From Candidatus Woesearchaeota archaeon UBA489 (GTDB taxonomy: Archaea > Nanobdellota > Nanobdellia > SCGC-AAA011-G17 > UBA489): 64,000 nucleotides of DNA. Positions 1 through 48,200 of the stretch are shown here, in pieces; the stretch's first letter is position 1; each line of letters opens with the position of its first letter. A program made the translations under genes and the position numbers. Under the pieces are notes generated by a model. It was given only the letters and a program-made list of their open reading frames with translations, was not told where the DNA came from and ran no database searches. The stretch spans positions 11,660-75,659 of the forward strand of contig DAVM01000021.1 in assembly GCA_002505585.1 (NCBI GenBank), given 5' to 3'.

Positions 1-562
1 AAACAAATCAATATTTGGTCTTGACGTTGATACTGTTTGTCCACTAACACCTCTAGAAGAACCAGGAGTATGTATTTTAAAAAATAAAGGAGATTCAATA
101 AACCTTACAACATTTCCAATACAAACAGCAGGATATTATTATCTCTTAACTAAAACAGATAACATAGGACTGCCACTCAATTCTATAACTGAAACACTTA
201 CAGCAACAATAGCAGGTGAAACAGGTACACCACAAGTAAAACCTATAGCCTTACCCTATTACGATCTTACTGATCTCTATGTCTTTGCAGGAGGAACAGG
301 CTCAGATATTCTTCATTATTTTAACGCAGGAGTGAATATAATTACTTTTACCAATAATCATAACGAACCCATTACGCTAGAATGGTTTAAAGTACTAGGT
401 GACGACTCTTACGCACTAGAACATGACATAACCACACCAGACAATAGATTTGTAGGAACAGGAGAAAGAATAGTAGCAGTAGCTAACGGAAACACTTTTC
501 ATGGATTTTATAATGTGAGGTATATGATATGGCTCAAATCAACAATTTCAACTGCAACTTAA
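1..562 (+). CDS. C-terminal part of a secreted/surface protein; the 5' end lies outside the window. The ORF is open in frame 2 from the window edge, and its stop overlaps the next start as TAATG.
   Basis: No stop codons in frame 2 from nt 2 to the TAA at 560-562. G/T/N-rich extracellular-like composition. The listed 76-aa ORF 332..562 is only its last internal Met. Confidence 0.5.
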   Translation, partial: NKSIFGLDVDTVCPLTPLEEPGVCILKNKGDSINLTTFPIQTAGYYYLLTKTDNIGLPLNSITETLTATIAGETGTPQVKPIALPYYDLTDLYVFAGGTGSDILHYFNAGVNIITFTNNHNEPITLEWFKVLGDDSYALEHDITTPDNRFVGTGERIVAVANGNTFHGFYNVRYMIWLKSTISTAT

Positions 563-1584
563 TGCCAAGAAAAACCAAAGGAGTACTTCTCACTTTAGGA
601 ATCACTTTCTTAGCATTAGTAGTACTCACCTTAGCAACACTTATTCTCCGCAATGCAGAAACATCAGAAGAAAGATTAGTAGAACTAGCAGGTATAGATA
701 GACTTTATAACTTAGGAAGCTCCACAGAAAGAAGCTTAGCAGAATCACTCTATCCTTATACAGGAGTTTATTTTAACATAACAAATGACACCATTATAAT
801 AGCAAGACAAATGCATCCATGGCCAGATAATACTCTATGGAGTATAGACTGGAGATTCTTTGATTACAAACTAACACTAATGACTATCTTCCCAAATTAT
901 ATCAACTCAGTAAGTAAAGGAGTTAATAGTCTTAACAAACTAGATGCTGCATTCAATAGAATAATGCTTCTTTTTGAACCAAGCGGTTCAATGTACTGGT
1001 TAAGTACAATTCCTTTTCATGTGGAAGATTATGGTTATCCAAATTTAACAATAAATAATGAAACATTTGAAAATTCAAATGTTTATTCAACATATCAATT
1101 TTTTGTTCCTCCAGCAGTAACAGACCCTACTTATCCAACCTCTTACACTTTTTACTTCAAAAGCACTGACGCAAACCCAATTATTAATTGGAGCAGGAAA
1201 GCAACTGAAGGTAATCCAAAAGTTAATCTAAAAATAATTGTTGAAGGACTTAATGGGTATCATGACGAAGTATCTGCTCTTGTTCCTCTAAATGCAACAG
1301 GAACACTATTTCCTCATGTTATCTATCTAGATAATCTTACAGCAGAAGCGAAATTACCACCACCTTTTAATATTGAAAAAACAGAAAAAAAACCCTCTAT
1401 TAGGTTTTATGAATCAAACAAAACAAATAACCTCTTTGCAATCTTTAATTTTGATGTAGAACTCTACACAGAAGTAATAATAAAACTTAATACAACTTAT
1501 ACAGAAGCATATACTTTACAAGAAATAACCACACAATTACCAGGATTTGGTATGAAACGCACAAGATTAGCTCGTTATGCTTAA
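562..1584 (+). CDS. Putative pilin-like / surface glycoprotein with a class-III-like (prepilin-type) signal peptide, positioned upstream of the pilus assembly genes.
   Basis: N-terminus MPRKTKG followed by a ~22-aa hydrophobic stretch, which is a KG-then-hydrophobic prepilin-like motif. At least 8 N-x-S/T sequons (NITNDT, NLTINNET, NWS, NATG, NLTA, NKTNN, NTTYT). The start ATG at 562 overlaps the upstream stop as TAATG; the alternative upstream ATG at 529 is less likely. Confidence 0.5.
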   Translation: MPRKTKGVLLTLGITFLALVVLTLATLILRNAETSEERLVELAGIDRLYNLGSSTERSLAESLYPYTGVYFNITNDTIIIARQMHPWPDNTLWSIDWRFFDYKLTLMTIFPNYINSVSKGVNSLNKLDAAFNRIMLLFEPSGSMYWLSTIPFHVEDYGYPNLTINNETFENSNVYSTYQFFVPPAVTDPTYPTSYTFYFKSTDANPIINWSRKATEGNPKVNLKIIVEGLNGYHDEVSALVPLNATGTLFPHVIYLDNLTAEAKLPPPFNIEKTEKKPSIRFYESNKTNNLFAIFNFDVELYTEVIIKLNTTYTEAYTLQEITTQLPGFGMKRTRLARYA

Positions 1585-12948: not shown

Positions 12949-13286
12949 AAATGTCAAACATTAAAGAACAAACAGTAGTAGAAGCATCGATTACAGAATA
13001 CAACATTTCAGCCTATGTTTCACTAGCATATGATGCACTAAGAGAAATACTAGAAGCACTTTGTATGCTCCATGGCTATAAAGTACTATCACATGTTTGT
13101 GTAGGAGAACTATTAAACGAATATTTAGAAGACTTTGACTACCATGGATTCAATAAACTTCGTTGGGTTAGAAATAGCATAAATTATTATGGAGAGAAAG
13201 TACCTTATGACCAAGGAAAACAAGCTATTCAACAAATCTTCACCCTCAAGAAAAGCATAGCAGAAACCTACTTTGACCAAACATAA
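12870..13286 (+). CDS. HEPN-domain protein, partner of the MNT; the true start may be the internal Met at 12951.
   Basis: All-alpha ~115-aa protein immediately after, and overlapping, the MNT gene. Conserved R-x(4-6)-H-like region (RNSINYYGEKV). Assignment is by genomic context. Confidence 0.5.
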   Translation: MDLDTCFKKGLIKKTLINKKLIQAFIEMSNIKEQTVVEASITEYNISAYVSLAYDALREILEALCMLHGYKVLSHVCVGELLNEYLEDFDYHGFNKLRWVRNSINYYGEKVPYDQGKQAIQQIFTLKKSIAETYFDQT

Positions 13287-13725
13287 CTTATATAAACACT
13301 TTTTGTTTAGTAGCTTTATAGACTATGAAGAACAGAAGAGAAGATTAGATGCCCTGCCAAGAGAATTGGTAGTAAATTACCTCAGAAAAGCACGTTTAGC
13401 ATGTGAACATGCAGGATTAGTAGCAGAGAACCCCATTTCATCCTCAGCTCTTAAATTTCTCATTGAGAGAAACAAAAGAGGATTAGCAGAAGCAGAAACA
13501 ACATTAGTGCAAGCTATACGCTGCGAAGAAATTGTTGTTACAGGTCCTGAATTAACTCATTATTTGCTCACTTATGCTAGAGCACTTCACAGAGAACAAC
13601 GAGCAGTAAATGCAGAATACCAAAAAAAAGGAGCACCAGAAGGCTTACGCCAGGTTGGTGAAGAAGAGGAAGAAAGTCTTCAGCTTTTGATTGAACAAGG
13701 CTTAGAACAAAGCTTCCAATCATAA
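13273..13725 (+). CDS. Hypothetical acidic alpha-helical protein with atypical codon usage.
   Basis: Uses CTC/CGC/CGT/GCC codons that are rare elsewhere in the window. E/Q/L-rich. No recognisable motif. Confidence 0.4.
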   Translation: MTKHNLYKHFLFSSFIDYEEQKRRLDALPRELVVNYLRKARLACEHAGLVAENPISSSALKFLIERNKRGLAEAETTLVQAIRCEEIVVTGPELTHYLLTYARALHREQRAVNAEYQKKGAPEGLRQVGEEEEESLQLLIEQGLEQSFQS

Positions 13726-17811: not shown

Positions 17812-18495
17812 ATGGCACAAAAAGAAAGACCATTTTTGAACTTACTCATAAACATTGTTATACCAGTATTTATTCTCCTTAAGTTAAGTAAAGAACAATA
17901 CTTAGGACCATTCTATGGACTCATAGTTGCGTTAGCATTTCCAATACTTTATGGATTGTATGAAGTAGTGAAAGAAAAAAAATATAACTTTTTATCAATA
18001 CTAGGAGTAGTAAGTATACTTTTAACAGGAGGCATAGGATTGTTGCAACTAAATAATAATTGGTTAGCAGCAAAAGAAGCAGGAGTACCACTATTAATCG
18101 CAATAGCAATATTAGTTTCATTAAAAACAAACTACCCACTAGTAAAAAAATTAATCTACAATGACAGCATCATGAATATAGCAAAGATAGAAGAAGCACT
18201 AGAGGAAAAGAAGAGTAAAGAACAACTAGAAAAACAACTCAAAAAAGCATCTTATTACGTAGCAGGAACATTTGTCTTTTCAGCATTCTTAAACTATATT
18301 CTAGCGAAAATTATAGTGGTAAGTGAACCAGGAAGCGTAGCATACAATACAGAACTAGGAAGAATGACGGCACTAAGTTTTCCAGTCATAGCACTACCAT
18401 CAACAATATTATTAGTCATAGTGATCTTCTCTTTAGTTAAGAAAATAAAGCAATTAACAGGATTAGAAATGGAAGAAGTGTTTAAAGCAAAATAA
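17812..18495 (+). CDS. Polytopic membrane protein of unknown function.
   Basis: Six TM helices with a central amphipathic KEQLEKQLKK segment. TATA box at 17781-17791. Confidence 0.5.
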   Translation: MAQKERPFLNLLINIVIPVFILLKLSKEQYLGPFYGLIVALAFPILYGLYEVVKEKKYNFLSILGVVSILLTGGIGLLQLNNNWLAAKEAGVPLLIAIAILVSLKTNYPLVKKLIYNDSIMNIAKIEEALEEKKSKEQLEKQLKKASYYVAGTFVFSAFLNYILAKIIVVSEPGSVAYNTELGRMTALSFPVIALPSTILLVIVIFSLVKKIKQLTGLEMEEVFKAK

Positions 18496-18855
18496 TTATT
18501 CTTGAGTATATTTTTCATCCAAAGCTAAAGCAAACTCAGCTTTCTTTAATTCTTTTCCTAAATAAGCAGCATGATCAAGACGAGTAAACCAATCCAACTT
18601 ATGTTCTTTAGCATACTCAAAAATAGCATGATACAAATCCTGAGCTCTTTTTCCACGAAACTCTTTCAAAAGAACATGTTCATTAGTACAAATACCCACA
18701 CCAATTTCTTGAGAAGAAGGATACAAACGAATTAAAACATAACACTTATCAGGACGATAATCCTTAATAGCATCACAAGTAGCAACCTGAATAACTTCAA
18801 AATCAGGAGCAGTAGTCTTCTCTTTAATCCAAGCAGGTTTTGGAGATTCCATCAA
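18496..18855 (-). CDS. Hypothetical protein.
   Basis: 119-aa ORF with host-like codon usage and no recognisable motif. Confidence 0.45.
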   Translation of the reverse strand: MMESPKPAWIKEKTTAPDFEVIQVATCDAIKDYRPDKCYVLIRLYPSSQEIGVGICTNEHVLLKEFRGKRAQDLYHAIFEYAKEHKLDWFTRLDHAAYLGKELKKAEFALALDEKYTQE

Positions 18856-18898
18856 TTACCATTACAATTCTCTCTTTAAAAACCTTTCAGTAAATTTT

Positions 18899-19423
18899 TT
18901 AGTTATTTCTACTCCAATGAGCTATATATGAAGTAATACTAGTCCTTGACACTCCAACTAACCTTTTATCTTCATAGATTTCATCATTAGCTACTCCAGC
19001 ATCCTTAGCACCATGAACTATTCCTTTAATCTGATCTTTTGTTAGTTCTGTTGCCTTCTCTACTCTTTGAGGTTTTCCTTCAGTAGCAAATATCTTATCC
19101 AATAAAGTTGTGAACTTAGTTAGTTCTCTTTCATTTAATTTTCCAACTACTTGATCTGTTGGAACAATAACATAGTCACTACCTACATATTGTTCTAACC
19201 CTTTTTCACCTTTAGGATTAGAGTTGCTAGGAGAACTTGCTTTTTGTTCAGCTCGAGTATTATGTGCTTTATATGCACCAACACTAGTAGTGCTTATTTG
19301 CAATCCATAAGCAATTCTTTCAGTGGAAAGCTCTAAACTATCTAATTCTTTCACAATTTGCCTAGTATCCATTCCTCCATCACGTAACTCTTTTACTTTT
19401 ACTCTAGTTTCTTTCTTATTCAT
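18899..19423 (-). CDS. Hypothetical protein with an N-terminal HTH-like segment, in an island of atypical codon usage.
   Basis: T-ending codons are frequent on the coding strand, unlike host genes. 4-nt overlap with the upstream gene. Confidence 0.5.
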   Translation of the reverse strand: MNKKETRVKVKELRDGGMDTRQIVKELDSLELSTERIAYGLQISTTSVGAYKAHNTRAEQKASSPSNSNPKGEKGLEQYVGSDYVIVPTDQVVGKLNERELTKFTTLLDKIFATEGKPQRVEKATELTKDQIKGIVHGAKDAGVANDEIYEDKRLVGVSRTSITSYIAHWSRNN

Positions 19424-19995
19424 TTTTGACCTCCATCCTCTTTTGTTTGTTTTACGAAATAAGCTTGGAAACCCATCCTGTCAGTTCCATCTTGGTAGTC
19501 TTTCCCTCTAGGAAGAATACTTCCATCAAATACATGATCAACTACTTCGAATCCATTATTTCCAAAGATATTCCAAGCATTATAAAAAATAGTGTCAGGA
19601 ATCTCAGCTACTTTTAGTCCTGAACTACGCTGATGATTTACTCTAGAAGCAAGATTAAAAGTTGTAGCAACCATAGCTTGACCATTTAATCTTCGCTTTA
19701 CTAAACTTTCTAAAACCTTTGCTCTCTTCTCAGAAGTTGCACCTAAATAATCTAGGAATACTACATCAAATTTTCCTTCAAATCTATCTTGTACAGTAGT
19801 AAGAAACTCTTCAGATATACTGAACTTTTCTTGTAAGTAAGTTGGAGCATCACTATTTTCTTCAAGTTCATCAAGTAATTTATCATAATCTTTTAAAAGA
19901 ATCTTTTCACCTTTATCATTTCCTTTGTAATTTACTTCAAACTTACCATCTCTTTTTCTTACACTCATTCCAGGATCTTTAACAAAATCTAACAA
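19420..19995 (-). CDS. Hypothetical protein in the atypical codon-usage island.
   Basis: 191-aa ORF. Motif DVVFLDYLGA. No confident family assignment. Confidence 0.5.
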   Translation of the reverse strand: MLDFVKDPGMSVRKRDGKFEVNYKGNDKGEKILLKDYDKLLDELEENSDAPTYLQEKFSISEEFLTTVQDRFEGKFDVVFLDYLGATSEKRAKVLESLVKRRLNGQAMVATTFNLASRVNHQRSSGLKVAEIPDTIFYNAWNIFGNNGFEVVDHVFDGSILPRGKDYQDGTDRMGFQAYFVKQTKEDGGQK

Positions 19996-20005
19996 AATAA
20001 GATCA

Positions 20006-20446
20006 TCAATATCTATTTAAATTACTAGAAAGTCTATCATCTGCACGGAATTCTCCACTTGGAACAAAAACTTTAGGAACAAATTCCAAACCAGCACGTT
20101 GTAATGTTGCTGTTAAAACACCATTTCTTTCTGCATTTAAATTTTTATTATGTTTAGGAGTAAATTTATACAACACTTTAACTTCTTCTCCTCCAGAAAA
20201 TTTTAGAGTTACGTCAGTCATATACCCACCATTATAAATACCAGTCCCTTCTTGTCTTCTTACATCTTCTGTAATTTGAACACAATGACCCTTTATGCCA
20301 TTTTCTTTTTGTATTTCTTTAATAACTGCATTAAAATAATCATCATCCATAGTTCTTGCTATAGAAACTGGATTTGCTCTTAATCTCTCTACAGCTCCTT
20401 CAGCAAAAAACTGATTAACAAAATACTTCATAGCATCAATAACCAT
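20006..20446 (-). CDS. Hypothetical protein in the atypical codon-usage island.
   Basis: 146-aa ORF, first of three co-directional closely spaced genes. 212-nt upstream intergenic region. Confidence 0.5.
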   Translation of the reverse strand: MVIDAMKYFVNQFFAEGAVERLRANPVSIARTMDDDYFNAVIKEIQKENGIKGHCVQITEDVRRQEGTGIYNGGYMTDVTLKFSGGEEVKVLYKFTPKHNKNLNAERNGVLTATLQRAGLEFVPKVFVPSGEFRADDRLSSNLNRY

Positions 20447-20658
20447 ACCTGTACCAAGACTATATCCTCAACTAAAGGCCTTGGTGGAACGTTCTTCATT
20501 TTTTATGGAATGGCTTTTTTACATAAATACACTCTCGCTATTAAGCATATTCTTCTAACTAGAGACCATTTTAACTCATTTTATTTTATTCTGAGACTAT
20601 ATAAAACTTCCTATTGTAGTCACTTATTAGTAATTAAATAAAAGCTATTTCTCTTGTT

Positions 20659-21804
20659 CTACCAATTAACAGCAGATAAATGAACAAATTGCACTAAAAA
20701 AGCAACCACAAACATCCACAATAAACCAGGAATAAACAAAGCTAAAACAAGAATAAGCACTCTACCAAGACCAAGATGCAACTCTCGAAATAAGAAAAAA
20801 CTACCAATTCTCTTAGTTTTTTCAGCATGACCATAAATCAATTTACTCAAAGAAATATTCACCATAGAACTAGTCACAGCACCCAAAAAATTATTAATAA
20901 ACAACCCAACAGGAGATAAAAAAAGTAAACGAATAATCCAAAAAGGAGCATTCAAAAAAACACCTCGCTTCAAAGTTTTCTTAACATTTTTGTCAACTAA
21001 ACCACCAATATATACAATAAAAACAACCAACAATAAAGAAGTCATAGAAACAATAGCACCCAAAGTTACCACATTCTTAACAGCCAAATAAATAAACACA
21101 GGCCAAAAAACACCACCAACCAAATTTAAAACACCCTCAGCCTGATAAATAAACATCCTCTTTTTAGGTTGCGCAGTTAAAACACTCTTAATAGAAATAA
21201 CCTCTTTCTTCATTCTTTTATCAGGAGTAAAAAACAAAGGAAGAATAGCTAAAAACAAAATACCAGCAACAACAAAAAACACAAACTCAAAAGATTGAGA
21301 AGCAATAAAAAAAGAACCAATCAAAGGACCTAACACACCAGCAAGAACAGCAAAAGCACTAAGAATAGAAACTTCCTCACCCTCTTTTTTTTCACAAGCA
21401 GACTTAGCAAACTCAACATGAAAAGCAGCATAATAAAAACCAGTACTAACACCAAACAAAACAGCAAGAGGAACATAAGACAATCCACCACTAATTTGAT
21501 TAACAAAATAGTAAAACACAACCAAAAAAGCAATACCCAAACTCATAGTCTTCTTAATACCAAAATGACTATTACACCACATACCAGGAAACATAAAAAT
21601 GAAAGCAGAAGAAAAATTTATTAAAAAATACAAAGCAATATCAGCAATACTATACCCTAAAGTAAGCAAATAAATAGGGATAAATAAATTAATCATAGAC
21701 AAAGCAAAAGACTTCAAGAAAAAAGAAAGGTAAAGCTCATCCAACTCTTTATTACTGAAATAATGCACTAACAAATCATGAATATGTGGTCTAGTTAGTG
21801 GCAT
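20659..21804 (-). CDS. Major facilitator superfamily transporter.
   Basis: About 12 TM helices across 381 aa. A loop motif with a basic cluster lies between TM6 and TM7. Confidence 0.7.
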   Translation of the reverse strand: MPLTRPHIHDLLVHYFSNKELDELYLSFFLKSFALSMINLFIPIYLLTLGYSIADIALYFLINFSSAFIFMFPGMWCNSHFGIKKTMSLGIAFLVVFYYFVNQISGGLSYVPLAVLFGVSTGFYYAAFHVEFAKSACEKKEGEEVSILSAFAVLAGVLGPLIGSFFIASQSFEFVFFVVAGILFLAILPLFFTPDKRMKKEVISIKSVLTAQPKKRMFIYQAEGVLNLVGGVFWPVFIYLAVKNVVTLGAIVSMTSLLLVVFIVYIGGLVDKNVKKTLKRGVFLNAPFWIIRLLFLSPVGLFINNFLGAVTSSMVNISLSKLIYGHAEKTKRIGSFFLFRELHLGLGRVLILVLALFIPGLLWMFVVAFLVQFVHLSAVNW

Positions 21805-22079: not shown

Positions 22080-22988
22080 ATAGCCTGTAAATCTTGTGAA
22101 AAAAAACCAGTATATGTTAGTCAAGGAGGGACAAAACTCTGCAAAGAAGACTACCTCCACTACTTTGAAAAAAAAGTACTAAAAACCATAAGACAACATA
22201 ACCTCTTAGGAAAGAAAGAAAAAGTAATCTGTGCACTCTCAGGAGGAAAAGATAGCGTAACAGTAGCACATATAGTAAATAAAATACTGAAAGAAAGAAA
22301 AGAAAAATTAACAGCACTCTTAATAGATGAAGGAATACATGGTTATAGAGCTTCAACAATAGAAGATGCTAAAAAGTTTTGCAAAGAAGAAGGAATAGAA
22401 TTAAAAATAATCTCTTTTAAACAACGATTTGGATTTACTTTAGATGAGTTTATAAAAAAACACAAAATAAATCCTTGCTCAGTATGTGGAGTAATAAGAA
22501 GATATTTGATGAACAAAGGAGCAAGAGAAGCAAAAGCAACACTCTTGTTAACAGGACATAACTTAGATGACGAAACACAAAGTTTGTTAATGAATCAATT
22601 TAAAGGAAACATGCAACTTAGTGCAAAATTAGGACCAATATCAGGAGCAGTTAGTCATGAAAAATTTGTGAAGAAAGTAAAACCCTTATATTATATGACA
22701 GAAAAAGAAGTAGCGTTGTATGCATTTTTAAAAAAGTTTCCAGTACAATTTGTAGAATGCCCAAATAGCCCAGGAACATTTAGGCAACAAGTAGGAGAAT
22801 TATTAAATAATTTAGAAAACAGTTATCCAGGGACGAAGCAAGGAATTTTGAAATCCTTTTTAACAATTTTGCCAGACTTAAAAAAACAATATGAGAATCA
22901 AACAATAGCAAATTGTGAACTTTGTGGAGAACCAGCAGCACAAAAACAGTGCAAAGTATGTATCTTATTAGAAAAAGAGAAAAAATAA
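22080..22988 (+). CDS. NcsA/TtuA/Ncs6-family tRNA 2-thiouridine synthase (PP-loop ATPase with Zn fingers). There is no canonical start codon for the N-terminal domain.
   Basis: N-terminal CxxC...C (KIACKSCEKKP...LCKED). PP-loop SGGKDS. Central PCSVCG and C-terminal CELCGEP...CKVC. The frame is open from 22065, just after a TAG, and the first ATG is at 22506, about 140 codons downstream. The 5' end is assigned to the ATA at 22080. Confidence 0.8.
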   Translation: MACKSCEKKPVYVSQGGTKLCKEDYLHYFEKKVLKTIRQHNLLGKKEKVICALSGGKDSVTVAHIVNKILKERKEKLTALLIDEGIHGYRASTIEDAKKFCKEEGIELKIISFKQRFGFTLDEFIKKHKINPCSVCGVIRRYLMNKGAREAKATLLLTGHNLDDETQSLLMNQFKGNMQLSAKLGPISGAVSHEKFVKKVKPLYYMTEKEVALYAFLKKFPVQFVECPNSPGTFRQQVGELLNNLENSYPGTKQGILKSFLTILPDLKKQYENQTIANCELCGEPAAQKQCKVCILLEKEKK

Positions 22989-23072: not shown

Positions 23073-24404
23073 ATGACAACTACAATTACAGAACCAAAAC
23101 TACTCGAAGAACCACAAGAGAGGCCCCATAGGACGGTTATTCTAGATGGTGAAATGACTCATAAAGATGTTGCAAGAGAACTAAGAAACTCACCAGAACC
23201 AAATACTATAACACACCTTTGGACAAGAGATGAAGTAACACTCCTCAGAGAATTTTCTCCCTCAACCTATCATAAACTAGCACAAGATCCAACATTAGGA
23301 TTAGAATCTTTCACAGACATTGAACATCGCCTTCCACAACTAGCACTTCAATTACAAACAGAAGTAAGCCATAGATCAGCAACAATGGATTGTTATGTTT
23401 TAGGCCCAAAAAAAGGTGATGAGGGTACTTTAAGAAGTAAATTCCATCATCTTAGTAGACTCACAACACTCTTTGACCTTCTAAATATACCACATCCAGG
23501 AGCTTTATCTCCAGATTTATTAGAAGGAACTCCTGATCTTAGAGAATTATTTATTGAAACAAGACTAAGATATGCAGAACTTTTGCAAAACATGCCAGAA
23601 TGGGCAAACCCAGAAATAACAACTTCAACAGAAACAAAAACAGCAAACTTTAGAAAACTCCCAATAGAACAACAAAGAAGATTTGGTTATGTAGATCACA
23701 TTAAAAGATTGGTAGGGGAAAAAAATTTAGTAGCAGTAGCGGTATATGGATCAGCAACACAAACAACAGAGAACGGAGATTATGACAATTATGTAGTTAT
23801 ACAAGATGGAAGCTTGCCCACTGTATGTCATAGACTCCTTGATCAAGACTTTGTTAATCAAGAAGATGGCAAACATGTAGGAATGAACATCTTGCAAGAA
23901 GGAGCGTTTAGTAAATTTATTCGTATGAACCAAGACTCATATGAAAGAAGAGTAACAGGAATTCTGCTTTATGGAAGCCTACAATTTCCAATATTATCTG
24001 ATGAAGAAGATATAGAAAGAGGAATTAGTTCAACAATGTTAAGGAGAAGAACATTAGGAGGGGCAGCAACACATCTTACTCATGATCCAGAAAGATTACT
24101 AGGAAGACCAGATCTCTTTCAATTCTTCCAAAAAACCTTGCGTAGTATGGAAAAAGCTGGATTAAACTTAAGAGAAGGAATATTTTCAAGAAGTAATGCA
24201 ACATTAGATGCAAGACTTGAACAAGATGGTATACATATAAGACCTTACAAAGATGATTTAGCATATCTTCATGATGGTATTTATGATGCACTAGCAGCAG
24301 CAACCCATTTAACACATAAATATTTTGCAGGAACAGAATTTAAAGGAAATTTTTTGGAAGTAACAACACATGATACTCCATCGACTAAACCTTTAGAAGT
24401 TTAA
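23073..24404 (+). CDS. Hypothetical 443-aa protein with a nucleotidyltransferase-like GS...DxD motif and atypical composition.
   Basis: AVAVYGSATQTTENGDYDNYVVI (GS-x9-DxD). Codon usage is richer in G/C- and T-ending codons than host genes. Confidence 0.5.
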   Translation: MTTTITEPKLLEEPQERPHRTVILDGEMTHKDVARELRNSPEPNTITHLWTRDEVTLLREFSPSTYHKLAQDPTLGLESFTDIEHRLPQLALQLQTEVSHRSATMDCYVLGPKKGDEGTLRSKFHHLSRLTTLFDLLNIPHPGALSPDLLEGTPDLRELFIETRLRYAELLQNMPEWANPEITTSTETKTANFRKLPIEQQRRFGYVDHIKRLVGEKNLVAVAVYGSATQTTENGDYDNYVVIQDGSLPTVCHRLLDQDFVNQEDGKHVGMNILQEGAFSKFIRMNQDSYERRVTGILLYGSLQFPILSDEEDIERGISSTMLRRRTLGGAATHLTHDPERLLGRPDLFQFFQKTLRSMEKAGLNLREGIFSRSNATLDARLEQDGIHIRPYKDDLAYLHDGIYDALAAATHLTHKYFAGTEFKGNFLEVTTHDTPSTKPLEV

Positions 24405-24694: not shown

Positions 24695-26503
24695 TTACCC
24701 AAAATATTTTTCTCTATAAAACCTAATAAGTTCTTCAACAGCAGGAATCACTTCAGGACTACCAATACCAACTTTTAATTTCTTTTGTACTTTTTCCAAA
24801 GTATCAGCACCTTCTAAGACAGCTTCTTCAATATCTTTATCAGTAACTTTAGTAGTTGGATCAACAATTCGAGCAGATTCAACAATAATACGATCAGTTT
24901 GCTCAGATTTACGAAAAAAATCGTTAATAGCAGAACGTAAAGCTTTGTCTCCTAAAACAGAACAATGGAACTTCTTAGCTGGAAGACCACCTAAACGCTC
25001 CATAATATCTTGAGGTTTTAATACTAAAGCATCATTAATCTTCATACCACCATTTTCTGAAATCATAACAGATAACATAGAAGTAGAGCCAATAGCTGAA
25101 GCACAACCAAAAGTTTGCCATTTACATTCTGTAATTCTATCTTGTTCTTTATCAACCTTAATCCACATCTTCATAGCATCACCACAATTATGAAGAGTGA
25201 AAGCATCACTAACATAAGAATGTGTTTTAGCTACTTCTAGATTATGTAAACGTCCACTAAATTGAGATTTTTCAACTTTCCTAATAGGCATATAAAAGTA
25301 GTTTTTGTCAAACCAAGAATGTTTAGCAATCCTTGATACTTTAGGATAAGAAAACTTAACTTTTAGTAGCTTACTCATTTTCTTTAAAGCTTCGTAATCA
25401 CCAACATGAATTCTATAACACTCAGCATGATTTACTCCTTTCACAACTTTAGCTTCTTCAAAATAAATAGAATGTTCAATCTTTTGACGAAGTAATAACA
25501 CTTTTAATTCTTGAGCTAAAATCCAAGAAGCAGTAGCATATTCAGCTCTAGGTTTTTTCTTTTCTAAATCAATATATCCATCACTATGCCAAACACCATA
25601 CAAAAAACTTTTTTGTAACTCAGGTTCTAAAAAAATGATAAATTCTGGGATTTTCTTGTTATAAGAAAGAGTGCCACAATTTTTTCTTAAATATCTAGCA
25701 AGATGAATACTGTTTGTAGTTACATCAATCCTATTTCTATCTTCTCTTTTTTTAACATAAGTATCTAACTTGAATATCTTTTTAAGAAGTTTGATAACGT
25801 CCTCAACAAATTTTTCTTCAGTGATGCCGAAGGTAAAACCAATTTCTCCTTTACGCGTATGTCCTTCGGCAACAAAATAACCAAATAAACGTAAAAGATC
25901 TTTAGTTACTTTAATCTTTGTAGGGATTGTCTTACTTTTATAATCAAAGTTTTTCTTAGTAACAGGAATTTCAATATATTCAACTTCTTTTACTTCTTTA
26001 GGAATAGGATAAGGACAAATATCTCCTTTTTGTAAGTTACCAGCATGCACCCAAGAGACAGGAAGCTTTCTTTTGTATTTATTATGTGCCCAAGAACCTT
26101 TTTCAGGGATTTGCATAGCATAGACTAAATGATCAGGAGTTAGAACAACATCTCCAAATTGGTTTTTTACTTTGACTATTTTTCCATCATACTTGGGATG
26201 ATAGAATTTAGTTATTTTATTATAAGAACCATCATGAGATAATACTTTGTGTCCTTTAGTAAGATTATCCATTTGTTGCACATCAAAATTAACATGAATC
26301 AAAGTTTTTCCTTCAGTACAAGCAGGACTTCCAACCATACCAATACCATCAGCTTTGTAAGTAGCAACTTCTTCTTCAGTTTTGAAAATATTTTTAGGAT
26401 TAAAAAAGTGTTCACGAACTGTTGGAGTGTAGAACCATTTTCTTGCATCTACCATAGACTTTACATCCTCATGAGTTACAGGTTGTATTTTTGGTTTTTC
26501 CAT
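24695..26503 (-). CDS. iscU: IscU/NifU-like Fe-S scaffold interrupted by a 378-aa intein.
   Basis: Exteins carry the IscU motifs (GMVGSPA | CGDAMKMW..., then ...HCSVLGD). The intein starts with Cys and ends TLHN followed by Cys. Confidence 0.85.
   Translation of the reverse strand: MEKPKIQPVTHEDVKSMVDARKWFYTPTVREHFFNPKNIFKTEEEVATYKADGIGMVGSPACTEGKTLIHVNFDVQQMDNLTKGHKVLSHDGSYNKITKFYHPKYDGKIVKVKNQFGDVVLTPDHLVYAMQIPEKGSWAHNKYKRKLPVSWVHAGNLQKGDICPYPIPKEVKEVEYIEIPVTKKNFDYKSKTIPTKIKVTKDLLRLFGYFVAEGHTRKGEIGFTFGITEEKFVEDVIKLLKKIFKLDTYVKKREDRNRIDVTTNSIHLARYLRKNCGTLSYNKKIPEFIIFLEPELQKSFLYGVWHSDGYIDLEKKKPRAEYATASWILAQELKVLLLRQKIEHSIYFEEAKVVKGVNHAECYRIHVGDYEALKKMSKLLKVKFSYPKVSRIAKHSWFDKNYFYMPIRKVEKSQFSGRLHNLEVAKTHSYVSDAFTLHNCGDAMKMWIKVDKEQDRITECKWQTFGCASAIGSTSMLSVMISENGGMKINDALVLKPQDIMERLGGLPAKKFHCSVLGDKALRSAINDFFRKSEQTDRIIVESARIVDPTTKVTDKDIEEAVLEGADTLEKVQKKLKVGIGSPEVIPAVEELIRFYREKYFG
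25187..26320 (-). mobile_element. Intein with a LAGLIDADG homing-endonuclease domain, inserted in iscU immediately before the cluster-ligand Cys of the ACGD motif.
   Basis: Block A CTEGKTLIHVN. Block B TPDHLVY. LAGLIDADG-like LFGYFVAEGH and LYGVWHSDGYID. Blocks F/G ...HSYVSDAFTLHN followed by +1 Cys. Confidence 0.8.
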
Positions 26504-28540: not shown

Positions 28541-29020
28541 ATGGGATATTATAGTGGAATAGCAGAAGGCTATGATCAACTACACGAAGAAGAACAATTA
28601 AAGAAAATAAAAATATTAGAAAAAGAAGCAGACATTAAAGGATTAATTCTAGATGTAGGAGCAGGAACCTGCATAGTAGCAAAATATTTTCATAAGAAAG
28701 GGAAGCAAGTCATATCCTTAGATCCAAGCCAAAAATTATTAGACCAAGGAGAAGGAGCAGCAATACTAGGAAAAGCAGAAAAATTACCCTTCAAAGACGA
28801 AACATTTGACACAGTATTATCAGTAACAGCACTCCATCATTGTAACATAGAAAAAGCATTGAAAGAAATTAAAAGAGTAGCTAAACAAAAAGCAACCATA
28901 GCAATAAGTTTTTTAAAAAAATCATCAAAGTTAAAAGAATTTGAAAAAATGTTTAAGAAAGTATTTGGTGAAGGGAAAAGAATAGATGAAGGAAAAGATA
29001 TAATTCATGTTAAGAATTAA
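28541..29020 (+). CDS. Class I SAM-dependent methyltransferase (type-11-like).
   Basis: Motif I ILDVGAGTCIV. Motif post-I ISLDPS. LPFKDETFDTVLS. Confidence 0.7.
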   Translation: MGYYSGIAEGYDQLHEEEQLKKIKILEKEADIKGLILDVGAGTCIVAKYFHKKGKQVISLDPSQKLLDQGEGAAILGKAEKLPFKDETFDTVLSVTALHHCNIEKALKEIKRVAKQKATIAISFLKKSSKLKEFEKMFKKVFGEGKRIDEGKDIIHVKN

Positions 29021-29409
29021 AGATAGTCCCAATTTACCATTGAATAACCACGACCTTCTTCAAAAAATCGTTTAACTCCTTTTTGACCTTCAATGACTGA
29101 TCTTACATTTGCTTCTTCACCTGAAACAACAAAACCAACTATATGTGATCTTGTTCTTTCCCCAGGAGTTCTATTAACTGGAGTTGAGTTTTGTTGATGC
29201 TCTACTGTTAAAGTATTATCTGCATTAGCATAGTGTCTTAAAGATGCGAAACCCATGTTTCTTATTCCTTCAGCCATTACTAAACCATGTTGTCTTAACA
29301 AACTGGTTAAACTTTGTTCATCAAGGTCTAAATCTGCCATACCTTTATCTTCTATAAAATCAAGAGGGACAATTTTAGATGCTGCGTAAATACCTGTTAT
29401 TCTTGCCAT
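29017..29409 (-). CDS. Hypothetical protein with non-host codon usage.
   Basis: 130-aa ORF whose coding strand is T-rich, unlike host genes. No motif recognised. Confidence 0.45.
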   Translation of the reverse strand: MARITGIYAASKIVPLDFIEDKGMADLDLDEQSLTSLLRQHGLVMAEGIRNMGFASLRHYANADNTLTVEHQQNSTPVNRTPGERTRSHIVGFVVSGEEANVRSVIEGQKGVKRFFEEGRGYSMVNWDYL

Positions 29410-37465: not shown

Positions 37466-38113
37466 TTATTTTTTATCAATCTGTTTCTTCACTAACTTAA
37501 AGAGTAGATTTAACTTCTCTTTAGGTATATCGAGTTTCATTTTATATTTTAAATGTTCTAAGAAACAACCTAGTTCAAAAAAAGCAGATTCCTTGCCTAA
37601 TTTAAATTGATTTCTAGCTTCTTCAATAATTAAGTCCCAATCTACTCCTTTTAATTCCATTATCCTTCTCACATCATCTTTATCTTTCTGCCTATCAGTA
37701 GCACATTTCATTAAAATGATATCATTATGGTTAGCAACTTTTACAATTAATTTATCTTCAAAGTCTAAAGTTATTTCTGTTCTTCTCTTCATTTCTTTTG
37801 AGAAAATAAAATGTATTACTTCATCAAGGAATAAATCAAATCTTTCATCTTTTAACTTTAACATCTCTGGTTGATTTCTTTTAGTTCCATATACTTGCAC
37901 TGAGTCTATTTTACGATACCCTATATCTTCTGCAGCTTCTTTGAAAATAGCTCTCTCTTCTTTATTTCCAAAAACTAAGTCAATATCTAGAGTAGCATCT
38001 TTAACTCCAAGAAACATCATAGCAGTTCCTCCAATTGCATACACTGTAATTCTTTTTTTTAATCTTCTAGCAATGTTAGCTAATAATAGTTCTTGGTCCT
38101 TTACTGAAATCAT
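37466..38113 (-). CDS. Nucleotidyltransferase-fold protein (AbiEii / DUF1814-like toxin candidate).
   Basis: AIGGTAMMFLGVKDATLDIDLV (GG...DxD). 4-nt ATGA overlap with the upstream wHTH gene. Non-host codon usage. Confidence 0.6.
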   Translation of the reverse strand: MISVKDQELLLANIARRLKKRITVYAIGGTAMMFLGVKDATLDIDLVFGNKEERAIFKEAAEDIGYRKIDSVQVYGTKRNQPEMLKLKDERFDLFLDEVIHFIFSKEMKRRTEITLDFEDKLIVKVANHNDIILMKCATDRQKDKDDVRRIMELKGVDWDLIIEEARNQFKLGKESAFFELGCFLEHLKYKMKLDIPKEKLNLLFKLVKKQIDKK

Positions 38114-38730
38114 TTATAGTCCTCTAAATCTTTATAATTGAAAGGTAGATAAATTCTCCATTTAGTCTCGATAGATTTAAAATCTTTAGATTTCAGTTTA
38201 GGGATAATATAATTAAACTTATACTTTTTTTTAGGCAAAGCTTTGTTTATAAAATGCTTATCTATTCTTCTAGTCTTCATAATTTTCCTTGCTACTTCAT
38301 ACAAAGCACCAACTTGTCTTTCTACATGATTATCTTTAGCTAATTGGTAGAGTAATTTCCAATTGTCTATTTTCTTAAATAAACTTAGTGCAGCAAAAAT
38401 TGTTCTAAAGCTTTTTGTTTTTATGGCGTAAACAAAAGTTTCCTCTAAAGATGGGTTTTTTCTATAAATATAATAATTTTTTGGTATGACTATTTTAGTT
38501 GGAGCATATGTGTTAATTATTTCTTCATATTTAATGCCACCTAACTTATTATCTAAAGAAATATAATAGACTCTCTTGTTATCATTTAATCGTTTAGTTT
38601 TAACATATCCTTTCTTTCTTAATTTGTAGACTTGAAAAATAGCTTTCTTTTTTGGTAGCTTTAATAGAGACATAATAGAATCTATAGTATGGACTCCTTC
38701 AACCTTTTTTAGTAACTCTATTAGTTTCAT
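38110..38730 (-). CDS. Winged-HTH protein (AbiEi-like antitoxin/regulator candidate).
   Basis: N-terminal wHTH-like segment. Paired with the downstream NTase. Duplicated promoter upstream. Confidence 0.5.
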   Translation of the reverse strand: MKLIELLKKVEGVHTIDSIMSLLKLPKKKAIFQVYKLRKKGYVKTKRLNDNKRVYYISLDNKLGGIKYEEIINTYAPTKIVIPKNYYIYRKNPSLEETFVYAIKTKSFRTIFAALSLFKKIDNWKLLYQLAKDNHVERQVGALYEVARKIMKTRRIDKHFINKALPKKKYKFNYIIPKLKSKDFKSIETKWRIYLPFNYKDLEDYK

Positions 38731-39488: not shown

Positions 39489-40685
39489 ATGACGCAAAGA
39501 GAAGTATCTTATGAACAAATACATCAAAAATTTGTAGATAATGTAATAATTCCTAATAATCAATCAATAACTCCAGTAAGTGCCATTATTCCTACATATA
39601 ATCGTGCACCTCAACCTTTAGGATTAGACGCTAACCCACTAGCTTGGTGTTTAGAATCCTTATTAGCACAAGAAAATGCAAATCTTGCAGAAATTATAGT
39701 AGTAGATGATTGTTCAACAGATAATACTGAAGCAGTTTTTGAATTCTACGCAGCAGAAGCAGAAAGAAGAAGAATTAAACCAAAACTAATAAGAAATAAC
39801 AAAAATAGAGGCTCAGCTATTAGTAGAAATAAAGGAGTTCTTGCTAGTGAAAGCCCATTTATATTCTTTGGAGATGATGATTGTGTTTTTGATCCACGCA
39901 TGATTGCCGGAGCAACAATTACTTTAGAAAAATTAACAGAAGCAGCAGCAGTACTTCACCTACCTATTTATCATAGAACATCTAAACCTGAACTTGTAGA
40001 TTTAAAAAATATAGGAATGCTTGATTTAGCAAACGGAATTATGACAGGAAATTATGGAGGATTTCCAAGAGAATACTTAACAGACCCAGAAAGTTTCTTA
40101 TTAGATCCTGAATTAAAACTTTTTAGACCAATCGAGATCCAAAATTTAGGAGGAGTCTCTTTAACAAAAAAAGATGCTTTCCTTAGAGTAGGATTATTCC
40201 CAGAAAGTTTTACTTGGAGAAACTCTTATCGTGAAGAAACTTATTTATCAATGCGTTTCACAACTCAAGGATATAAATTATTCTTTACTCCTGACCCAAA
40301 ATTAGCTTCTATACATTTTAAATATGGAGCACAAGAAGAAACAGATACTATAGGGTTAGATAAAACTTTAGCTTATCGTATTAAAGAGAGTAGTATTGGA
40401 ACAGTTGACACAGGAAATAGAGTGACTTCAGAAGAATGGTTCCATAATGTTCTTCTAAGCACTTTTGTAACAATTCATAGAGAAAGTCCAGTAGCAGCAG
40501 AAAATTATGCACAAAGAATGCACAGAAAATTTGTAGTAGCAAATAACTTTGAAGTAACAGGTGTAGGTACAAAAATTGAAGATATGCCAAAGCGTAATGA
40601 AATCTATGAAAGAGCAATGTCTGATGCAAGAACTTTTGTTAAAAATGGGCATCCTATTGAAGTTTCAACACCTATTCACCAGTAA
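39489..40685 (+). CDS. Family-2 glycosyltransferase.
   Basis: AIIPTYNR ... IIVVDDCSTDNT ... FFGDDDC (DxD). Confidence 0.75.
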   Translation: MTQREVSYEQIHQKFVDNVIIPNNQSITPVSAIIPTYNRAPQPLGLDANPLAWCLESLLAQENANLAEIIVVDDCSTDNTEAVFEFYAAEAERRRIKPKLIRNNKNRGSAISRNKGVLASESPFIFFGDDDCVFDPRMIAGATITLEKLTEAAAVLHLPIYHRTSKPELVDLKNIGMLDLANGIMTGNYGGFPREYLTDPESFLLDPELKLFRPIEIQNLGGVSLTKKDAFLRVGLFPESFTWRNSYREETYLSMRFTTQGYKLFFTPDPKLASIHFKYGAQEETDTIGLDKTLAYRIKESSIGTVDTGNRVTSEEWFHNVLLSTFVTIHRESPVAAENYAQRMHRKFVVANNFEVTGVGTKIEDMPKRNEIYERAMSDARTFVKNGHPIEVSTPIHQ

Positions 40686-42251: not shown

Positions 42252-42339
42252 AGGGGTCATAGCATAATCCGGTTAGTGTTGCCGGCTCCAAAAAATTTAG
42301 GAGTCACCGGTAGATCCAGGTTCGAATCCTGGTGACCCC
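42252..42339 (+). tRNA. tRNA-Trp (anticodon CCA) with a ~14-nt intron at the canonical 37/38 position.
   Basis: Acceptor GGGGTCA / TGACCCC with discriminator A. T-arm CCAGG-TTCGAAT-CCTGG. Anticodon stem GCCGG / CCGGT. Loop CTCCAAA. Intron at 42291-42304. Confidence 0.8.
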
Positions 42340-42391
42340 ATATAATCCTTCTAGAAATATTTATAAACCTACACTATTCCTTAGTAGTCCT

Positions 42392-42979
42392 ATGAAACTT
42401 ATTTGGGGGCTTATGAATTTAACTATTCTTTTAGCCCTAGCTGTACAAGCAGAACCTTTAACTTCAAAACCCATCTACAAAGTTGAGGTAAAAGAACTCT
42501 TGATAAACCACTATGATTTACAGTGTAAAGAGAGTATTACTTCAATAATCAATCTCCATAATAGAGGTAATTTAGATGCAACAGTATCAGTAGAACTAGT
42601 CAATAGTAAGCTTGGAGTAGCAGAAGTCTCTCCTAGTATTAGAATTCAAGCAGGAAGACAACAAGGCATAATTGTACCTTTCAAAATAGCAAAAGATGTA
42701 TATGGAGCTTATGAATTTGAGATTAGACTCTATACAGAAGAAGGGATCAAAAGATTGTTTCAAACTGTCCATTTTCAAGAGTGTGATAAACCAAAAATCA
42801 CTTCTTTGATTAGAGATAGTAAACCATTACAACAAACTCAACAAGAGGAAGAAGAGAAACAATCTCCTCCATTACCTTTCCATTTCTTAATAGGGATAGG
42901 TCTTTTAGGAGTGCTAGCACTACTTTCAGCACTCTTTATCATCCATTCTTCACTTCAAAAAACACAACCAGAAACATGA
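42392..42979 (+). CDS. Secreted protein with a signal peptide and a C-terminal TM anchor.
   Basis: The listed start at 42332 lies inside the tRNA, so the start is assigned to MKLIWGLMNLTILLALAVQA. C-terminal helix IGIGLLGVLALLSALFII. Confidence 0.5.
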   Translation: MKLIWGLMNLTILLALAVQAEPLTSKPIYKVEVKELLINHYDLQCKESITSIINLHNRGNLDATVSVELVNSKLGVAEVSPSIRIQAGRQQGIIVPFKIAKDVYGAYEFEIRLYTEEGIKRLFQTVHFQECDKPKITSLIRDSKPLQQTQQEEEEKQSPPLPFHFLIGIGLLGVLALLSALFIIHSSLQKTQPET

Positions 42980-45113: not shown

Positions 45114-45287
45114 TTGTATAAAAAATACATTCTAAAAAGAGGAAAGAGAATAGGACCATATTTCTACACTAGTGCTCGCTTAAAAGATGGCAGAGTAAAA
45201 ACAGTCTACTTAGGTAGTAATGAAAAACTTGCACGTCAGAAAGAAAGAACACAACAACTCATTAAGGTGGTGAAAAGGAAAGGATGA
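45114..45287 (+). CDS. Putative small basic protein (TTG start) translationally coupled to the giant gene by an ATGA overlap.
   Basis: 57 codons, K/R-rich (LYKKYILKRGKRIGPYFY...). The stop TGA overlaps the ATG of the 2355-aa ORF. Confidence 0.3.
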   Translation: MYKKYILKRGKRIGPYFYTSARLKDGRVKTVYLGSNEKLARQKERTQQLIKVVKRKG

Positions 45288-48200
45288 AACACCAACTTAC
45301 ACTTATTGATAAAGAAAGAGAATTACGAAGCCTTATCTTACAAGCAGAAACACACAAAAAACAAATAAGAAGAGTAATCAGACAAATAACAGAACACTAT
45401 AAACACGGAAAAATAACACATGAAGAATACAAAACAAGAATACAAGAAGCATTTGGTCAACAAACACCAACAGCACTCATAAAACATTATGATACTTGTA
45501 TAAAACAATACCAACAAGAACTAAAACAAAACAAACAACTAACAACCCAACAAAAAACAAATACACCACTTTACTTAATTGCTTTCCTCTTACTCATAGG
45601 AGGAATAGTTTTCTCCAACACAGACTTCACAGGATTCTTCATAGCAGAAGGAACACCACACAAAACAACAGTAAACCTGATAACAAACGAAGACATAACA
45701 TACACCTTACCTCAACCAATAGAAGGAAAAATTACAGCATTAGCAATTAGTGGAACAATAGAAGGAGATGGAGAAGTACAAATTTATTTAGAAAATATAG
45801 ACAACCTCCTTTATGACAGTACAAAAAAAGAAGCAAAAAAAGGACTCTTTGGCAAACTCACAGGATTAGTAACTGCACCAACAAACCAAACACCCCAAAA
45901 TAAACTACAACTCTATGACGAAGATAGAAATATTCTAGAAGCAGAAGAAACAACCACAAAAACAAGCTTAGTAACAAAACCAACAACCATACTACAAATA
46001 CAAAAAATAACATTCCAAAACTTAAAAGGGAAAAAACTAGGCATTAGCACCAAAGCAAGAGGAATAGTAGCACCACAAGGAAAGAAATTCAACACTATTT
46101 ATTCCTTTGACACAACAGAACTCACCTTTGACGAAGCAACAGCACAAATTACAGCAACAGGCAACGAACTCTACAAATGTAATATCTGGGACTTTAGTCT
46201 AAGCATATGTTTAAGCACATGGGAACAATTTACAACAATTGAACAAACAAAAGCATATAAAATCACCTTACCAAAAGGAACAATAGCATTCGCAGAAGCA
46301 AATACCATAAATACAACAACTAGCAAAAAACCACAAACATTCCCACTCCAACCACTAACAGTAGCAGTTAAACAATTCAACCTAGGAGAAATAGCAAAAT
46401 TTGACATACTAGTCAAAAACACACAAAAGACCACTACACCTGCACAAGCACAAATACAATTAACAAACAACAAAACAACCATTGCAAACTTCAACAGCAC
46501 CAAAGAAAACATAACACAAAACCAACCAAAAGCACTATTAGCGTATTGGGACACAACAAACACAGAATCAGGAACTTATGAAGGAACACTTAAACTAATA
46601 GCAAATAAAGAAACTAAAGAATATCCAATCAAAGTAATAGTAACAGAAAAAACAATACACACAGAAATCATAGGCATAACAGGAAAAGTAGTTACTAAAA
46701 CACAAGAACAACCAAAGAAAAACCAAAAAAAGAAAACATTTATAGCAGAATGCAAAGATGCATGCACACTTGAAGGACTTAACAAAACACCACACAAACT
46801 TATAATTATTATCAAAGATGCACTACTCAACCTTACTAATATAGATTACACTATAAAAACAAATGGAACAAATATAACAATAAACAAAACAAAAATAAAA
46901 TTCCAATTAGACCAAAAACAACACAAGAAAAAAATAAAAAAACTCAAAATAGACAAAACAAAAATAACTCACAGAGATGAAAAGAAGAAAATACACAAAA
47001 TCCAAAGACATGCATCAAAAAACATTACAGATGGAGGCCTTGGTTGGGAAAGAGAATGCATTGATAGCATTTGCAAACACACCATCTATCAGAATGTTGA
47101 ACATTATCATAAAGAAGACAGTAATTTTGGCGCAATAAAAAACGCATTAACAGATCAAAATTGTGCAATAGACGAAGAATTATGTATTAAGAGCAAAAAA
47201 CACAAAATAAGCTTCAAAGAAAAAGCAACACAAGAAGCAACAATTAACCTAACAATAAACAATGCCACCATCTCCTTTACACCACTACAACTAAGACACA
47301 GTATGGGAGAAGAACAAACAATCCTAAGTAGTGCAAATCCAGTCACAGGAGAAGGAACAGACAATATCTTCACCTATAATAATATTTTCGGCCAAGGAAT
47401 CAATATGAAACTAACTTATTTAGCAGACCAAATAAAAGAAGAAATTATACTTACAGACAATAGTTTCCTAGGAAATATACCCCTAACAAATACAACTAAC
47501 ACAACAATAACTATAGACTATATAGTAACAAAATCACCAGAACTACAATGGAAAATAGGAAATGTAATACAAACACCACTTGCAATAGATGAACAAATAC
47601 AAACACCACAAGCACTACAACTTCAAGACACAAAAGGAACAAAATTTATCCTTCCAAAACCAATAGCATATAGTGGAAAAGAAACACAACCACTTAGTTA
47701 TAGTCTTACACAAACAGACAAACAAGAAATACTAAGTATAGAAATACCACTCACTTACTTACAAACAACACCTTATCCAATAATCATAGATCCAACAATA
47801 GTACTTGATTATGCTAGTGTTCTCTTTGACGGTTATGTAACATCTGGTATCTCAGGTGGAAGTTACACAAGAGCAAGTAGTCCGGACCCAGTCTTTGTAG
47901 GCCAAACAGATCAAGGAGGTCCATTTGATACTTACAGAGCAGACATAGACTGGGATATCTCATCAGTACCAACAAACGCATTTGTTACACAACTCACATT
48001 AGACCTCTACGTAAAACAAATAGGTAACCCAGATACCACAATTTATGTAAACCAAATGAGTGGCAACAGCACAACCTATCCAGATGATGATTCAGGAAAC
48101 ACTGATTTTTATACTGATATGCAAGACACCAATTATGCTTCTATAATGTTAGGTGGTGCACAAGCATATGAAGCAATAGATTTCACAGCAGACCAATCAT

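Follow-up and report, generated by a model that had tools for sequence, protein, structure and literature searches.

A compositionally foreign segment carrying a truncated B gene in a strand-biased woesearchaeal genome: a probable recent arrival from another DPANN archaeon

We analyzed a 64,000-nucleotide (nt) stretch of Candidatus Woesearchaeota archaeon UBA489 (contig DAVM01000021.1, positions 11,660 to 75,659), hereafter the window, in which three minus-strand open reading frames (ORFs), ORF2, ORF3 and ORF4, together with two spacers form an atypical island of ~1.8 kb at 18856-20658 (positions of the window). It is proposed, with moderate confidence, that this island is a recently arrived and probably decaying fragment of another DPANN genome. 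What was imported would be part of a gene cluster that related archaea have on their chromosomes, with one junction inside a large gene, here named B; the fragment would hold the last ~29% of B, the small partner gene C, and an orphan (ORF4) that crosses the junction, the B piece being the second half of a putative Rossmann- or methyltransferase-like domain. The donor would be another DPANN archaeon lacking the strand bias of the host, and the fragment, having had little time since its arrival, would still be unadjusted to the host composition. Recent arrival is the best reading because a foreign composition coincides with a variable location between the conserved ThiF-Fer4 and ThiS-NcsA genes, and the island is seen as a decaying remnant rather than a working cassette because the truncated B, designated B', would be unable to do the job of B alone.

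The composition of the island stands out against a strong strand bias of the window. At the 4-fold sites of the 57 genes outside the island, A and T on the plus strand number 5066 and 1005 (AT skew +0.67), and C and G number 623 and 237 over the 64-kb window. The AT skew is independent of gene orientation, being +0.63 in 38 plus-strand genes and +0.75 in the 19 minus-strand genes outside the island, and its sign is constant throughout the 64 kb. Codons of plus-strand genes end in A in ~60% of cases, and minus-strand genes end 50-65% of their codons in T because the strand bias ignores gene orientation. An earlier note on this DNA, made from the sequence without database searches, had singled out the three ORFs for an excess of T-ending codons; that excess is a strand effect which holds against plus-strand neighbors only, and against neighbors on the same strand the island is in fact poorer in T, the fraction of codons ending in T being 0.41-0.50 in the island vs 0.60 (18496-18855) and 0.65 (20659-21804). 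The idea of a foreign composition survives, in the direction opposite to that claimed and by a different statistic. The plus-strand AT skew at the 4-fold sites of the three island ORFs is +0.11, +0.12 and +0.25, or +0.16 when they are pooled (A:T 104:76), and this deviation is highly significant against same-strand genes (Fisher p = 7e-21) as well as against all genes (p = 2e-15). The flanking spacers share it: the 212-nt upstream spacer (20447-20658, minus strand) has an A:T of 64:85 on the plus strand (skew -0.14) and the 43-nt downstream spacer (18856-18898, minus strand) an A:T of 14:19 (skew -0.15), with p = 6e-7 for both spacers against all intergenic DNA (+0.215). No contiguous run of low skew in the window is longer than the segment 18856-20658, and these data support that the island is compositionally foreign to its surroundings. 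Its A and T are about equally frequent at 4-fold sites, as in the unskewed DPANN genomes L113 (the lineage with the closest B homolog) and L114.

A similar skew was seen in two further marine DPANN contigs, L091 and L108 (596 kb and 179 kb), and it is absent from the relatives L011, L113 and L114; a search of the full-text literature gave no account of such a strand skew for Woese- or Pacearchaeota. Further genes of near-zero skew (+0.02 to +0.25) are scattered over the window at 529-1584 (plus strand), 13273-13725 (plus), 29017-29409 (minus), 37466-38730 (minus), 39489-40685 (plus), 42332-42979 (plus) and 56202-56603 (plus). Six of the eight other low-skew genes have no Pfam domain, and the remaining two encode a DUF6036 nucleotidyltransferase and a GT2 glycosyltransferase. 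A low skew thus seems to be a sign, in this genome, that a gene is accessory or came in recently. A neutral-site bias of this strength (A:T of ~5:1 on one strand) marks recently arrived or flipped genes, and no reference genome is required.

The location of the island points in the same direction as its composition. It lies in a variable stretch between the conserved ThiF-Fer4 and ThiS-NcsA genes, an interval that holds different genes in L011; in L091 the genes for ThiS, NcsA and ThiF sit in a single operon. The horizontal acquisition suggested in the earlier note is thus supported by both the unskewed composition and the variable location.

The three ORFs themselves are genuine. As had been read from the sequence before, ORF4 (146 aa, 20006-20446), ORF3 (191 aa as annotated from a TTG start, 19420-19995) and ORF2 (174 aa, 18899-19423), all on the minus strand, are tightly packed behind the 212-nt bounding spacer, with a gap of 10 nt between ORF4 and ORF3 and an overlap of 4 nt (ATGA) between ORF3 and ORF2. 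A fourth ORF previously counted with them (18496-18855, minus strand) falls outside the island: it is a DUF4346 pterin-binding gene (Pfam, 6e-14) with a native skew of +0.85, and together with the change in skew it places the left boundary of the segment at the downstream spacer. Stop-free runs of 198, 193 and 153 codons compare with a 95th percentile of 83 and a maximum of 149 in 2000 shuffles, and coding periodicity is normal in all three ORFs, the GC content falling from the first codon position (0.47-0.50) through the second to the third (0.11-0.16), as expected of non-chance ORFs. The upstream spacer contains an archaeal TATA-like element, TTTTATATA at 20606-20598, which is a putative promoter; this spacer has no Rfam match and a folding z-score of -0.02. 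A Shine-Dalgarno (SD)-like GGAGGT is found 5 nt upstream of the ORF2 ATG. The missing SD before ORF3 and ORF4 was considered as a diagnostic sign and rejected, an SD being present in only 15 of the 60 window genes. Searches of Pfam, PHROGs, PADLOC and NCBIfam gave nothing above threshold for ORF2, ORF3 or ORF4, so the earlier statement that they have no recognizable domains stands; PDB sequence searches with the three ORFs gave nothing usable, and a word-indexed search of 5.8e9 proteins returned for all three only self-matches from the same population. ORF3 is nevertheless not an orphan, because an exhaustive HMMER search, which covered 1.84e9 representative proteins, gave 47 relatives.

Each of these 47 matches is to the C-terminal ~180 aa of a much larger protein of 485-730 aa, the best being P0004 (E 2e-37, ~46-47% identity). 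The B family (P0004-P0049) is defined in this analysis, with a profile hidden Markov model (HMM) of 607 positions built from 33 full-length members; B has a SAP-like N-terminus, a coiled coil and a methyltransferase-like C-domain with a helix-turn-helix (HTH) insert. Against this profile, the stop-to-stop fragment 19423-20016 scores 209 bits over positions 431-606, i.e., the C-terminal ~29% of B, and neither 18300-21000, searched in six frames, nor the window as a whole gives another B match in any frame. B' spans 19420-20016 (minus strand). The alignment begins at residue 2 after an in-frame TAA (20017-20019, minus strand), which forms the 5' limit of B homology and hence the truncation point; the reading that follows the TAA, IDIDDLILLDFVKDP vs NIDDLILLDFVKDP in the family, starts seven codons upstream of the first possible start codon, the TTG, and the same frame upstream of the TAA has many stops and no B similarity. 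In the part that is covered, B' keeps all of the 10 invariant and all of the 12 near-invariant family positions; all 13 conserved positions of the preceding domain segment (YLGLEGPNF...EY..R..N.M) are missing. The full-length architecture of B, with a SAP-like N-terminal region, an N-domain and a complete C-domain starting at YLGLEGP, is thus not found in B'. Gene A, which precedes B in relatives, has no match anywhere in the 64-kb window. Homology shows B' to be a 5'-truncated copy of a DPANN B gene. B' would be unable to replace B because the N-terminal two-thirds are gone, and with them the invariant YLGLEGP...EY...R..N.M segment, the presumed nucleotide-binding half of the B domain. A 198-aa protein, P0022, was examined as a natural short B and rejected as a scaffold-gap artifact.

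It might be argued that the island is instead a working minimal operon, with B' working as a stand-alone C-terminal half-domain alongside the HTH protein C, and ORF4 standing in for the N-terminal parts that B' lacks. The ORFs are intact, tightly packed and of normal periodicity, B' has lost none of its 22 covered conserved positions, ORF2 has a strong SD, and the TATA-like box lies upstream, all of which would suit such an operon. This explanation is nonetheless unlikely: the B homology extends upstream of the usable starts and is cut by a stop, the first half-domain has lost its 13 conserved positions out of 13, and we found neither another stand-alone short B nor ORF4 anywhere else.

ORF2 was identified through the neighbor of B. 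It is 38% identical (E 7e-25) to a 159-aa gene product encoded convergently to B in L104, and 28-38% identical to the C proteins of L104, L109, L110, L107 and L112 and to the C-terminal tails of P0006 and P0009, in which C is fused to the C-terminus of B. Both ORF2 and its C homologs contain two HTH-like repeats that end in S-[IL]-x-x-Y-[KI]-A-H, and both repeats are conserved. The HTH-like segment formerly assigned to 20006-20446 is to be sought elsewhere: HTH-like repeats, two of them and sub-threshold, are located in 18899-19423. Members of the C family reach only sub-threshold HTH matches, namely GerE in three of nine members (best E 0.0024), HTH_Tnp_1, HTH_38 and HTH_7. Homology and the linkage to B assign ORF2 to the C family, and C may still be able to bind DNA.

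In relatives, B and C belong to a larger conserved cluster. C follows B in all eight contexts, adjacent in L104/L113, L107, L109 and L110, nearby in L112 and fused in L108 and L111; in L114, a 133-aa gene was counted as an adjacent C by position alone and is probably one. B-C linkage is shown by these contexts to be recurrent, the homologs of ORF2 being beside, near or joined to B in 7 of 7 independent contexts. A (257-403 aa, with a Myb-like N-terminus) lies directly upstream of B wherever upstream DNA is present (eight distinct contexts); the L109 contig ends within B. X (~277 aa) and Y (520-539 aa) precede A in L112 and in the Pacearchaeota genome L114, and Y homologs occur also in L107 and L110, the L110 copy having weak HATPase_c_3 and GHKL-type PHROG matches. 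X-Y-A-B-C cluster loci are found at L112:4374-11502, L114:2735-8802 and L108:9140-12193 and in L107 and L110. The contigs that carry the cluster are chromosomal and long (179 kb and 62 kb), and its neighbors there are L35Ae, L10e, PPDK or RNR genes; the L108 cluster shares the native skew of its genome. The cluster has no Pfam, NCBIfam or PDB relative, and the only existing name for it is 'hypothetical protein [Candidatus Pacearchaeota archaeon]'. The description of the island genes as unknown is consequently right for the orphan ORF4 and for B and C in that they are uncharacterized; it misses that ORF2 and ORF3 have homologs in a chromosomal cluster conserved in Pace- and Woesearchaeota. The X-Y-A-B-C cluster, conserved and unannotated there, is a better structural and functional target than the island.

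The conserved motifs of full-length B ('YLGLEGPNF', 'EY', 'NIDD', 'FDVVFLDYxG' and 'RRLxDxAVVAxT') recall methyltransferase motifs I-IV and strand beta5. Sub-threshold matches to the Pfam family Methyltransf_35 were obtained for three of 33 B members (best E 0.004) and for one of 15 (E 0.0015). Single-sequence AlphaFold models are poor, with predicted local distance difference test (pLDDT) scores of 43 for ORF3 and 46 for ORF4, so that fold searches with them give no more than hints. A Foldseek search with the B' model returned mostly methyltransferases (MT-A70/MTA1, M1.HpyAVI, CcrM and TYW2), all weakly, at E 1e-3 or worse and a template modeling (TM) score of ~0.25. An hhalign comparison of B with three methyltransferases gave a probability of 0.4%, and PDB searches gave nothing usable with the profile of either full-length B or its C-domain. 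The methyltransferase-like fold of B, suggested by motifs and models, is treated here as no more than a lead; were it correct, ORF3 would correspond to the half from strand beta4 onward, without the nucleotide-binding half.

ORF4 is the orphan of the island, with no relative in protein searches beyond the same population. It ends inside B-derived DNA, where its final four codons and the stop lie, and so it spans the junction. HMM and hhalign comparisons of ORF4 with the B, A, X and Y families and with B neighbors were all negative; an apparent collinearity of ORF4 with the middle of B, 'KFSGGEEVKVLYKF' resembling 'YKFSGNEQEVMDFKKKF', was rejected on the negative comparisons with B, A, X and Y. 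In PADLOC, ORF4 has a partial match to REase_II (E 4.5e-4, 17.7 bits) with no partner-gene match, and a D78...E89-V-K91 pattern is placed on adjacent strands in its predicted structure (model pLDDT 46). A 155-aa protein, P0064, from a JGI contig of 1405 nt was considered as a read-through variant of ORF4 and rejected: it reads ...NRYWWSYFVRFC, as the window DNA would with the two TGA codons at 20008-20003 translated as Trp, and it is probably a translation-table artifact of gene calling.

A second alternative is that nothing was imported and that an inversion or deletion with one breakpoint in B broke up the genome's own A-B-C cluster; the low skew would then be that of a flipped segment only halfway to re-equilibration. 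An inverted native segment would have to approach its new equilibrium through values near zero, relatives have B and C among their core chromosomal genes, and the truncation does lie inside B. The shift from -0.65 to +0.16, however, requires about one substitution per neutral site, and over such a time an unselected, AT-rich ORF of 198 codons should gain stops. Moreover, ORF4 is an orphan, no remnant of A or of the N-terminal part of B is left in the 64-kb window, and the spacers appear unskewed, not half-reversed. We regard a native rearrangement as quite improbable.

The proposed import of a DPANN fragment has to be held against several points that weigh on the other side. None of the three ORFs is broken, the 22 conserved positions that B' covers are all kept and the SD of ORF2 is good; because the ORFs are intact and the conserved residues kept, either the truncation is very recent or the fragment is under selection, and these features fit recency and equally allow continued selection. 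The best homolog is 46-47% identical. The 23 contigs that bear the island represent a single population at >99.9% identity, and an empty site in a close relative was not found, the nearest genomes being 47-65% identical in flanking proteins and the region being rearranged in them. The methyltransferase-like fold of B, finally, is based on motifs, sub-threshold Methyltransf_35 matches and non-significant Foldseek matches of a poor model.

We also looked for signs of a mobile element or a defense system, since the earlier note had proposed viral, plasmid or defense cargo. No PHROGs match of the island ORFs falls below E 0.029, and IMG/VR, a GenBank phage collection and an exact-DNA scan gave no match. 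A tblastn search of PLSDB gave no match for P0004 (B), ORF2 and ORF4 not having been searched against plasmids. No integrase ORF is present in the ORF list or the Pfam scan, flanking att-like repeats are limited to chance-level matches, and the nearest tRNA gene, at 42253, is ~22 kb away. That proposal has therefore found no backing apart from the weak REase_II match of ORF4. The sequence does not fit a type II restriction-modification system either, as B' is without motif I, has D-Y-L-G for (D/N)PP(Y/W) and gives no methyltransferase Pfam match, and the assignment of ORF4 as a nuclease depends on a motif and one weak match. A speculative possibility, to which we give little credence, is that ORF4-B'-C is a maintained, stripped-down derivative of an undescribed DPANN DNA-modifying or DNA-organizing system, with ORF4 as a small PD-(D/E)xK-type nuclease; the full system would consist of X, the GHKL-type ATPase Y, the Myb-like HTH protein A, the methyltransferase-like B and the double-HTH protein C, and if true, the derivative would be a new kind of restriction-modification-like or chromatin module. 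Least probable of all, and very improbable in view of the negative searches above, is a viral, plasmid or defense cassette, for instance a restriction-modification-like one in which ORF4 would be a PD-(D/E)xK nuclease, B' what is left of a methyltransferase and C the controller protein, even though the composition is foreign, the Foldseek matches of B' are mostly to DNA or RNA methyltransferases, and ORF4 combines the weak REase_II match with the D78...E89-V-K91 pattern.

The population that carries the island comes from a Tara mesopelagic metagenome of the 0.1-0.22 µm fraction, in which its contigs reach 137 kb. A flanking P-type ATPase is 65% identical to metagenome-assembled proteins of Candidatus Woesearchaeota, the MFS (major facilitator superfamily) protein has no relative among the GTDB representative genomes, and the gene content of the window is archaeal, with a SAMP/ThiS-UbaA-NcsA set, RtcB, an intein-bearing NifU and an 88-nt tRNA-Gly. 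The NcsA-like tRNA-thiolation gene (22080-22988, plus strand) is full length, its product being 59% identical over 300 aa to an L011 protein. It starts with ATA at 22080, 1 nt past the ThiS stop and with GGAGGG just upstream, and gene callers shorten it to 159-160 aa from a TTG start at 22506; the L091 homolog has an ATG start, which would be consistent with G having mutated to A under the strand bias. Between the NcsA gene and the Fe-S assembly genes lies a 443-aa ORF (23073-24404, plus strand) without a Pfam domain and with an intermediate skew of +0.43; every contig of the population has it. The NifU/IscU-type Fe-S scaffold gene (24695-26503, minus strand) contains a LAGLIDADG intein, encodes a 602-aa product and has a skew of +0.54, below that of its neighbors. 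The tRNA-Gly(GCC) gene (42253-42340, plus strand, 88 nt) may contain an intron, and the low-skew ORF at 42332-42979 (plus strand) begins at its 3' end and could be the remnant of a tRNA-integrated element; an att-like repeat of the tRNA-Gly end was not found within 3 kb. A 2355-aa protein (45284-52351, plus strand) in which Laminin_G_3 and Ig-like domains occur is probably a giant surface protein; several ORFs that are Ig-like or have no domain come after it.

Compared with known systems, the nearest counterparts of ORF3 are the B proteins themselves (e.g., MAG38271.1 from Candidatus Pacearchaeota archaeon), with 38-47% identity over the C-terminal ~180 aa. Relative to the X-Y-A-B-C cluster, the window copy is without A, X, Y and the first ~430 of the 607 B positions; its C runs in the direction of B' and shares an overlap with it, whereas in relatives C is convergent to B or fused with it, and its locus differs from the conserved L35Ae/L10e/PPDK neighborhood of the B clusters. 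Full-length B resembles class I S-adenosylmethionine (SAM)-dependent methyltransferases of the beta-class N6-adenine or MT-A70-like type by motif pattern; it differs from them in that D-Y-x-G replaces the catalytic (D/N)PP(Y/W), and B' is without the putative SAM-binding half. The repeats of C share the HTH spacing of tri-helical HTH domains (LuxR/GerE, resolvase HTH_7 and transposase HTH), whereas a curated cut-off is never reached and the S[IL]xxY[KI]AH signature fits no named family. As a whole, the island is an ordinary and small event, and the skew-based marker of arrival and the X-Y-A-B-C cluster are of more interest. It is like horizontally acquired islets and gene remnants in its host-unlike composition, truncated gene, orphan ORF and variable site between operons. 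It differs from them in its signal, which is neither GC content nor classical codon bias but the lack of an extreme, orientation-independent strand skew; it is also without mobility genes or repeats, it sits ~22 kb from a tRNA gene, and its apparent donor is a DPANN chromosome rather than a mobile element.

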